64,000 bases of DNA from Escherichia phage EC101, in sequence record OL310488.1; one strand, 5' to 3'. Numbering within the stretch: the stretch's first letter is position 1; each line of letters begins with the position of its first letter. Below are positions 26,308-27,091 of this stretch, one piece after another. Made by a program: the position numbers and the translations under genes. The notes below the pieces were generated by a model that searched no databases, was not told where the DNA came from, and was given only the letters and a program-made list of their open reading frames with translations.

Positions 26308-26888
26308 TGATTAAATTGGTATTCGCTTATTCTCCAACTAAAACGGTTGAGGGCTTTAATGAATTAGCATTTGGTTTAGGTGATGGTTTACCATGGGGAC
26401 GAGTTAAAAAGGACCTCCAGAATTTTAAAGCTCGTACCGAAGGTACAATTATGATTATGGGTGCTAAAACGTTCCAGTCATTATCTACATTACTTCCTGG
26501 TCGTAGTCATATTGTGGTGTGTGACCTTGCGCGTGATTATCCTGTAACTAAAGACGGCGATTTAGCACATTTCTATATTACTTGGGAACAGTATATAACT
26601 TACATTTCTGGTGGTGAAATTCAAGTGTCAAGCCCTAATGCACCATTCGAGGCTATGCTTGACCAGAATTCTAAAGTAAGTGTAATTGGCGGACCCGCTC
26701 TGTTATATGCTGCATTACCTTATGCAGATGAAGTAGTTGTTTCTCGTATTGTTAAAAGGCATCGTGTTAATTCAACTGTTCAATTAGATGCAAGTTTTCT
26801 TGATGATATAAGCAAGCGTGAAATGGTTGAAACGCATTGGTATAAAATAGATGAAGTAACAACCCTTACGGAATCAGTATATAAATGA
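26307..26888 (+). CDS. frd: dihydrofolate reductase
   Basis: 193-aa ORF; sequence matches T4 DHFR as recalled. Confidence 0.95.
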
Positions 26889-27091
26889 GCAATAAATTAA
26901 AAGTTAAGGATGTTCCTAATGCTATGGCCCTTTTTATTTGTCGGCAGATGCATCAAGGGCCTATGACACCAAAACAATATCTTAAAGGTGAGCGTTCTTT
27001 AGGATTTACTCGCAAAGCAAAACAAATGGTTAAATTAGGATATAAGCCTAACTTTGCCAAATATCCTTCTACATATTCTTGGATGAACTAA
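26885..27091 (+). CDS. hypothetical basic protein (68 aa) inserted between frd and td
   Basis: ORF whose ATG overlaps the frd stop (ATGA) and whose TAA overlaps the td ATG (TAATG); Lys/Arg-rich; no recognisable domain. Confidence 0.55.

Follow-up and report, generated by a model that had tools for sequence, protein, structure and literature searches.

A 68-Codon Gene at the frd-td Junction

In phage T4 (NC_000866), the dihydrofolate reductase gene frd and the thymidylate synthase gene td overlap by 4 nucleotides (nt), with nothing in between. In Escherichia phage EC101 (OL310488.1), a 68-codon open reading frame (ORF; 26885-27091) stands precisely at this junction, which raises the question of whether it is a gene, how it came to be there and what its product may do. 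The DNA analyzed here, hereafter the window, is a stretch of 64,000 nt from EC101 and represents a T4-like (Tequatrovirus) genome segment. We found that the ORF is a genuine gene under purifying selection, a single-gene accessory cistron of the frd-td unit, which reached Tequatrovirus on a short Dhakavirus-type patch and which may encode a small, basic, host-directed protein.

At the left junction, where frd ends in ...TATAAATGA, the ATG of the ORF (26885-26887) overlaps the TGA of frd (26886-26888) as ATGA, and at the right junction (...AACTAATGAAA) its TAA (27089-27091) overlaps the ATG of td (27091-27093) as TAATG. Both neighbours being overlapped, the intergenic DNA around the ORF amounts to zero. 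The position, both overlaps and the translation were the same as those of an initial annotation, which had also stated that the ORF is missing from T4 and that frd and td overlap directly there; the pairwise alignment with T4, which showed a single clean 206-nt gap opposite the ORF, bore this out. The 25 nt located 5' of the ORF ATG were identical to the 25 nt located 5' of td in T4, and 801 nt around the ORF showed 100% identity to Yersinia phage PYPS2T and to several E. coli phages. No sigma-70-like site was found on the plus strand between 26318 and 27642, nor was there a terminator-like site beside the ORF, with the single weak match (26434-26446) lying inside frd, upstream of the ORF.

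With regard to its coding character, when the inner 200 nt of the ORF were shuffled, the frame stayed open in only 0.57% of cases, and the other two forward frames across it contained 6 and 8 stops, respectively. The ratio of nonsynonymous to synonymous substitution rates (dN/dS) was 0.12-0.18 against the orthologues of Klebsiella and Enterobacter phages (dS > 1, synonymous sites near saturation), and the N-terminus (MSNKLKV or MKGNKxKV) as well as the motifs F/LGF and LGYxP were kept down to 34% identity. One might think of a frame left open by chance, or of spacer DNA that harbors an RNA element, given that the ATG in the window has no Shine-Dalgarno sequence upstream and that the annotators of JS98, JS10 and Paracelsus did not call the ORF, but we lend such a reading next to no credence. 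Shine-Dalgarno sites are present in the orthologues of other genera, no RNA structure signal was detected at the ORF (folding z = -0.08), and the Rfam scan yielded for this locus only a sub-threshold, meaningless match, on which grounds the RNA element was dropped. Because of the purifying selection and of the outcome of the shuffle test, the absence of a gene is refuted for practical purposes.

Introgression on a Short Dhakavirus-Type Patch

The origin of the gene was traced by diagnostic sites, for which T4, T2 and T6 defined the Tequatrovirus types and JS98 and Bp7 the Dhakavirus types. The ORF of the window was 98.6% identical to that of JS98, as compared with 78% for frd and likewise 78% for td exon 1. 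The diagnostic sites were of the Tequatrovirus type in frd up to 26882, of the Dhakavirus type in the ORF and in td at 27106-27126, and again of the Tequatrovirus type from 27147 onwards. The left crossover was thus placed at most 10 nt from the ORF ATG and the right one within 27127-27146, which delimits a patch of approximately 240-260 nt comprising the ORF and the first 36-56 nt of td. This patch changes two Td residues (D6F and F12L), so that the Td N-terminus in the window is of the Dhakavirus type, whereas T4, T2 and T6 have MKQYQDLIKDIF. In Bp7, a Dhakavirus devoid of the ORF, the td 5' sequence was the same as in JS98 and in the window, and it differed in T4, T2 and T6. Since ORF-less Bp7 shares this sequence with JS98, the sequence is native to Dhakavirus and the transfer therefore proceeded from Dhakavirus to Tequatrovirus.

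The ORF-containing allele is present in eight or more Tequatrovirus genomes, of which the majority are classed as separate species, and eight were compared: the window, fFiEco06, ACG-C40, Sf21, SHFML-26, pSs-1, PD112 and AUBRB02. The right boundary was identical in all eight, and in each of them frd remained of the Tequatrovirus type until at most 10 nt before the ATG, with one extra donor base at 26882 in AUBRB02. That the same patch recurred in all of them indicates one introgression, and the simplest reading of the sequences would be a single transfer of a short patch (about 240-260 nt), which ordinary homologous recombination then carried further through Tequatrovirus. As for the tightness of the left junction, it may reflect a crossover within a 7-nt identity (CAGTATA), or else later conversion tracts from ORF-less phages that ended at the heterology. 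In PD112, additional isolated Dhakavirus-type bases were observed in td past the common boundary (window-equivalent positions 27195, 27255 and 27276), which points to further mosaic tracts of small size or to exchanges that took place independently.

JS98-type and T-even-type phages have been described as separate genome types in a work that treats the genetic isolation of T4 relatives from one another in a section of its own (Petrov et al. 2010, PMC2993671). The gene-sized patch from Dhakavirus into Tequatrovirus is a small, clear exception to this isolation, that is, a clean exchange between T4-like groups which are usually treated as genetically isolated.

The initial annotation had placed the ORF next to a mobile intron. 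Judged by its identity to T4, the window does harbor the td group I intron (27641-28657) with I-TevI (ORF 27771-28508), which lies around 700 nt downstream of the 68-codon ORF. An Rfam scan of 26000-29200 at E ≤ 0.1 gave no group I intron match, presumably because the endonuclease ORF splits the RNA model. A link between the two did not hold, since the ORF accompanied an intron-containing td in the window and in fFiEco06 and an intronless td in AUBRB02, Sf21 and pSs-1. In addition, the patch and the intron are kept apart by T4-type sequence, and no nuclease domain (GIY-YIG, HNH or LAGLIDADG) was found in Pfam at E ≤ 10 or among the matches of 23 relatives. On these three grounds, mobility through a homing endonuclease or linked to the intron was rejected.

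The frd-td Slot Is Polymorphic

When the frd-td junctions were compared, as the initial annotation had proposed, three alleles were encountered: an empty junction in T4, an unrelated 115-amino-acid (aa) gene in T2, T6 and RB14, and the 68-aa gene in the window, with no 68-aa ORF in any of the other four phages. Approximately 135 of the 569 Tequatrovirus-like records with this frd-td region carried the 68-aa ORF, and the 115-aa gene was found in approximately 363 records (≥90% identity), these counts being of database records, in which some phages are entered twice. Based on these numbers, the direct frd/td overlap that the initial annotation had used as its reference is correct for T4 but constitutes a minority state.

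The 115-aa ORF belongs to PHROG 1928 and is named RB32ORF229c in RB14. A 'putative homing endonuclease' label attached to it in a single record was not supported, as Pfam, NCBIfam and PHROGs returned no annotated match. Klebsiella Marfavirus F48, Serratia phage WSPA and Enterobacter phage MY742 contain one or two paralogues of the 115-aa family followed by the 68-aa gene; BLAST confirmed the paralogy, with two diverged paralogues arranged in tandem in the Klebsiella and Enterobacter phages.

The 68-aa gene was located immediately 5' of td in Tequatrovirus, Dhakavirus, Marfavirus, an Enterobacter phage and a Serratia phage, and in all five T4-like genera examined its stop overlapped the td start (TAATG, TGATG or GTGA). 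The position directly 5' of td is the ancestral home of the family in T4-like enterobacterial phages. The description of the ORF as inserted at the junction, also made in the initial annotation, applies to the lineage of the window, where it came with the Dhakavirus-type patch, but not to Dhakavirus or to the Klebsiella, Enterobacter and Serratia phages, where the position is native. Dhakavirus itself was split, with JS98, JS10, IME281 and IME341 having the 68-aa ORF and Bp7, IME08 and MX01 lacking it; the frd-td junction of Bp7 is the same ATGA as that of T4. The features are compiled in Table 1.

A second polymorphic slot was noticed one gene upstream (25706-26307), where two ORFs without a T4 counterpart lie between frd.1 and frd and where the T4 alignment breaks at 25763-26288. 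They encode proteins of 119 aa (Pfam DUF7247, PHROG 3566) and 85 aa (PHROG 3183). In T6, this upstream slot between frd.1 and frd likewise contains a pair of ORFs, which are similar to these in size.

Table 1. Coordinates of the features at the frd-td locus (positions in the window unless stated otherwise).
Feature	Position	Strand	Properties or basis
68-aa ORF (PHROG 9550)	26885-27091	+	68 codons + TAA; 7.9 kDa, isoelectric point 10.3; three predicted helices
frd (dihydrofolate reductase), cistron upstream of the 68-aa ORF	26307-26888	+	95.5% identity to T4 frd; Tequatrovirus-type diagnostic sites up to 26882
td exon 1 (thymidylate synthase), downstream cistron	27091-27640, end approximate	+	aligned to T4, JS98 and other td
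AATGA direct repeat (5 nt), left copy, bounding the 206-nt indel	26884-26888	+	sequence; T4 and Bp7 alignments
AATGA repeat, right copy, containing TAATG (ORF stop/td start)	27090-27094	+	sequence; T4 alignment
Dhakavirus-type recombinant patch in Tequatrovirus-type background	maximal 26883-27146, minimal 26885-27126	+	diagnostic sites; JS98 identity
115-aa ORF in T2	2743-3090 of the locus examined	-	frd-td slot occupant
115-aa ORF in T6	7969-8316 of the locus examined	-	frd-td slot occupant

A Small Phage Family with Members outside T4-like Phages

The 68-aa protein matched PHROG 9550 ('unknown function') with E = 1.3e-45, its residues 1-68 being aligned to the whole of the 68-position profile, and the same profile was matched by 22 of 22 aligned relatives. 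Orthologues of the ORF were found by tblastn in 239 phage records, and the exact protein was present on 332 public contigs, nearly all of whose sources designate it 'hypothetical'; the gene is therefore already known, under that label, in most public records carrying it. When 1.84 billion representative proteins were searched exhaustively with HMMER, 11 clusters were returned, one of them spurious, and a search for related loci with the alignment of close homologues gave only 9 IMG/VR loci. With around 10 clusters at 50% identity, the PHROG 9550 family is small and phage-only. The spurious cluster was P0026, a 1402-aa tandem-repeat metagenome protein that matched the family profile six times (motif NVPSALGLHVCHQG) and was discarded as a chance low-complexity match because the similarity was confined to profile positions 9-29. 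No characterised inhibitor was present among the relatives, the exhaustive search having given uncharacterised proteins only. In the literature searched, we found no mention of PHROG 9550, and an accessory-gene screen reported there does not mention the frd-td locus.

Individual records differ in how they treat the gene. The ORF was left unannotated in JS98 (4001-4207 of the locus examined), JS10, Paracelsus and SH7, and in ACG-C40 (364-492), F48 (3079-3207) and IME339, it was annotated from an internal ATG as a truncated protein of 42 aa. The identical protein of phage Shinka is labelled 'DUF4858', for which no Pfam match was obtained at E ≤ 10, and the product label 'flagellar biosynthesis protein' of the PYPS2T records was not backed by any Pfam or NCBIfam match. 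Three copies looked disrupted: that of locus L020 (893-1097) has a premature stop after 33 codons, that of Klebsiella phage EI was matched in two pieces by tblastn, and that of Shigella phage SH7 gave a 208-nt alignment against the 207-nt query. These could reflect either pseudogenisation or sequencing error.

Homologues at 33-45% identity occurred in Phapecoctavirus and in uncultivated large phages, where they were embedded in long runs of small unannotated early-type genes. No conserved neighbour that might allow guilt by association was found for these distant homologues, and neither td nor frd was present within approximately 4 kb of them. The phapecoctavirus copy possesses its own AAGGAGG Shine-Dalgarno sequence and is uncoupled from its neighbour. 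Furthermore, the thymidylate synthase annotated in Phapecoctavirus ukendt is of the ThyX type and is encoded 35 kb from the homologue on the opposite strand, and neither ThyA/Td nor Frd could be detected in the first 100 kb of the genome, the stretch examined; within those 100 kb, therefore, the family occurs apart from the ThyA-type Td that a Td/Frd complex would call for. At the ukendt locus examined, gp144 (11155-11430, minus strand) bears the annotation note 'vs.4 gene product [Enterobacteria phage IME08]', and gp136 (6566-7366, minus strand) is annotated as a Sir2-family protein.

Predicted Properties of the 68-aa Protein

With 13 Lys and Arg residues against 2 Asp and Glu, a net charge of about +11 and an isoelectric point of 10.3, the 7.9-kDa protein is indeed Lys/Arg-rich, as initially described; the basic residues conserved in the family are K4, K6, R20 and K34. 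AlphaFold2 with an alignment of 22 sequences predicted helices at residues 13-24, 29-38 and 43-50, with the C-terminal tail packing back onto them (predicted local distance difference test, pLDDT, 82; predicted template modelling score, pTM, 0.56). With close homologues only, the pLDDT was 62, and it rose to 82 once the distant homologues were added.

A BFVD fold search retrieved only the family itself, and no match was obtained in PDB sequence profiles, Pfam, NCBIfam or PHROGs beyond 9550, nor any structural match to a solved helix-turn-helix or DNA-binding domain. Given these empty searches, the protein cannot be recognised as a helix-turn-helix protein, a nuclease or an enzyme. The initial statement that it has no recognisable domain was thereby upheld in Pfam, NCBIfam, PDB profile and BFVD searches, and extended by an AlphaFold2 model without a known relative.

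Candidate Function and Alternative Explanations

How the gene would be expressed is suggested by its two overlaps: ribosomes ending frd would re-initiate on the 68-aa ORF, making use of the upstream context that drives td translation in T4, and those ending the ORF would re-initiate on td. The product would then be a strongly basic, three-helix, non-enzymatic protein of 7.9 kDa, made before replication. It would most likely act alone, by binding a host macromolecule, either an acidic protein or a nucleic acid, and it may be an accessory factor for host takeover or counter-defence which the phage does not need on laboratory hosts. A cargo gene for host interaction or anti-defence had also been suggested in the initial annotation; such a role is proposed here by analogy.

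The position of the ORF invites a different thought, namely that its product is an accessory factor of Td/Frd, made together with Td through translational coupling, that binds or tunes Td, the folate cycle or the complex synthesising deoxynucleoside triphosphates (dNTPs), or that the cistron sets the rate of td translation. In all five T4-like genera examined it stands directly 5' of td with a stop/start overlap, the other slot genes vary in number without any of them separating it from td, and the patch brought it together with the td 5' end, including D6F and F12L. We nevertheless regard such a partnership as quite improbable. Td is present in T4, T2, T6 and Bp7 although these phages lack the ORF, and the Td of Bp7 is of the very F6/L12 form; the homologues of phapecoctaviruses and other large phages are distant from td and frd, the phapecoctavirus copy is uncoupled with a strong Shine-Dalgarno sequence of its own, and ukendt has an annotated ThyX, 35 kb off and on the other strand, with neither ThyA nor Frd in the first 100 kb. 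The uncoupled state of the family in unrelated phages, together with the ThyX of ukendt, therefore favours an autonomous host-directed binder over a Td partner. Binding of nucleic acid could also be directed at the phage itself, with the protein acting as a translational repressor or a nucleoid-type regulator on phage mRNA or DNA. Its charge, the four conserved basic residues, the helical model and the prereplicative operon expression suggested by its place between frd and td are all consistent with such a regulator, but we consider it unlikely, as Pfam shows no domain for RNA or DNA binding in the protein, the gene can be dispensed with and is polymorphic in each of two genera, which is unusual for a regulator of conserved functions, and it is present in otherwise unrelated phages.

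The gene might also be a neutral or selfish passenger, copied by recombination into a tolerated slot without benefit to the phage. The polymorphism of its presence in Tequatrovirus and Dhakavirus would fit this explanation, as would the occasional disrupted copies (truncated in L020, in two pieces in Klebsiella phage EI) and the database records in which the ORF is unannotated. However, dN/dS values of 0.12-0.18 between genera whose synonymous sites are close to saturated, and a length and motifs kept to 34% identity in unrelated phages, are not what a passenger would be expected to display; no nuclease or other mobility motifs were found in it either. Moreover, the gene moved essentially alone, with almost no donor flank, and then occurred in at least eight Tequatrovirus genomes, and selection on the 68-aa gene itself is therefore the easier explanation for this near-solo transfer and subsequent spread. 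A mere passenger is thus decidedly unlikely in our judgement.

Taken together, the best overall explanation, to which we assign a roughly even chance, would be that of an accessory cistron under purifying selection, introgressed once, whose product is an autonomous early host-binding protein. Several points weigh against it. Of about 135 records, the single introgression is read from 8 Tequatrovirus genomes, the strict adjacency and coupling to td in five T4-like genera could reflect a functional Td link, and the confidence of the AlphaFold2 model is only moderate, as its pTM indicates. A bolder extension of the host-binding explanation is conceivable though doubtful: the protein might be a counter-defence or takeover effector with a new fold, the benefit of which drove the minimal Dhakavirus patch through at least eight Tequatrovirus genomes, and its relatives in phapecoctaviruses and further large myoviruses might fulfil the same role in the early-gene blocks there.

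Taken alone, the ORF adds to the many small phage genes that are uncharacterised, and public annotation already includes it. The three-allele frd-td slot, on the other hand, offers natural near-isogenic sets of phages with and without the ORF for function tests, and a confidently helical, unmatched predicted fold that recurs in unrelated E. coli myoviruses makes the gene a reasonable candidate for an accessory-gene screen.

Comparison with Known Systems

The locus shares with the frd-td pair of T4 its operon, its flanking genes and the style of stop/start overlap; it differs in that the coupling chain of the window contains an extra cistron, with td following the ORF instead of frd. The 115-aa ORF of T2, T6 and RB14 occupies the same slot, is likewise polymorphic and likewise has no assigned function. 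However, it is unrelated in sequence, its T2 copy is spaced from frd and td instead of overlapping them, and it is much commoner in Tequatrovirus (about 363 versus 135 records); in Klebsiella, Enterobacter and Serratia phages, relatives of the 115-aa ORF follow frd and precede the 68-aa gene.

The free-standing homing endonuclease genes of the seg/mob type and I-TevI resemble the 68-aa gene in being optional genes between conserved genes with co-conversion of flanks, but a product of only 68 aa with 2 acidic residues and no nuclease match, and a presence that is independent of the intron, set it apart. The ORFan cassettes of T4-type hyperplastic regions, flanked by PeSL, are described as small, non-essential, uncharacterised genes that are gained and lost among close relatives and horizontally mobile (Arbiol et al. 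2010, PMC2839356; Comeau et al. 2014, PMC4122927). Like these cassettes and the classical moron, the 68-aa ORF is polymorphic in its presence (about 135 of 569 records; Dhakavirus split), but a sigma-70 promoter and a stem-loop terminator of its own were not found. Instead of PeSL elements, it is bounded by start/stop overlaps and the AATGA repeat, with the crossovers falling within 10 nt of its start and within a 20-nt interval of td. Finally, T4 MotB is an early, dispensable, basic protein which reportedly binds DNA non-specifically and improves fitness (PMC7827196). The 68-aa protein, a candidate binder with no sequence or fold similarity to MotB, would resemble it only by analogy, in the way it might work.
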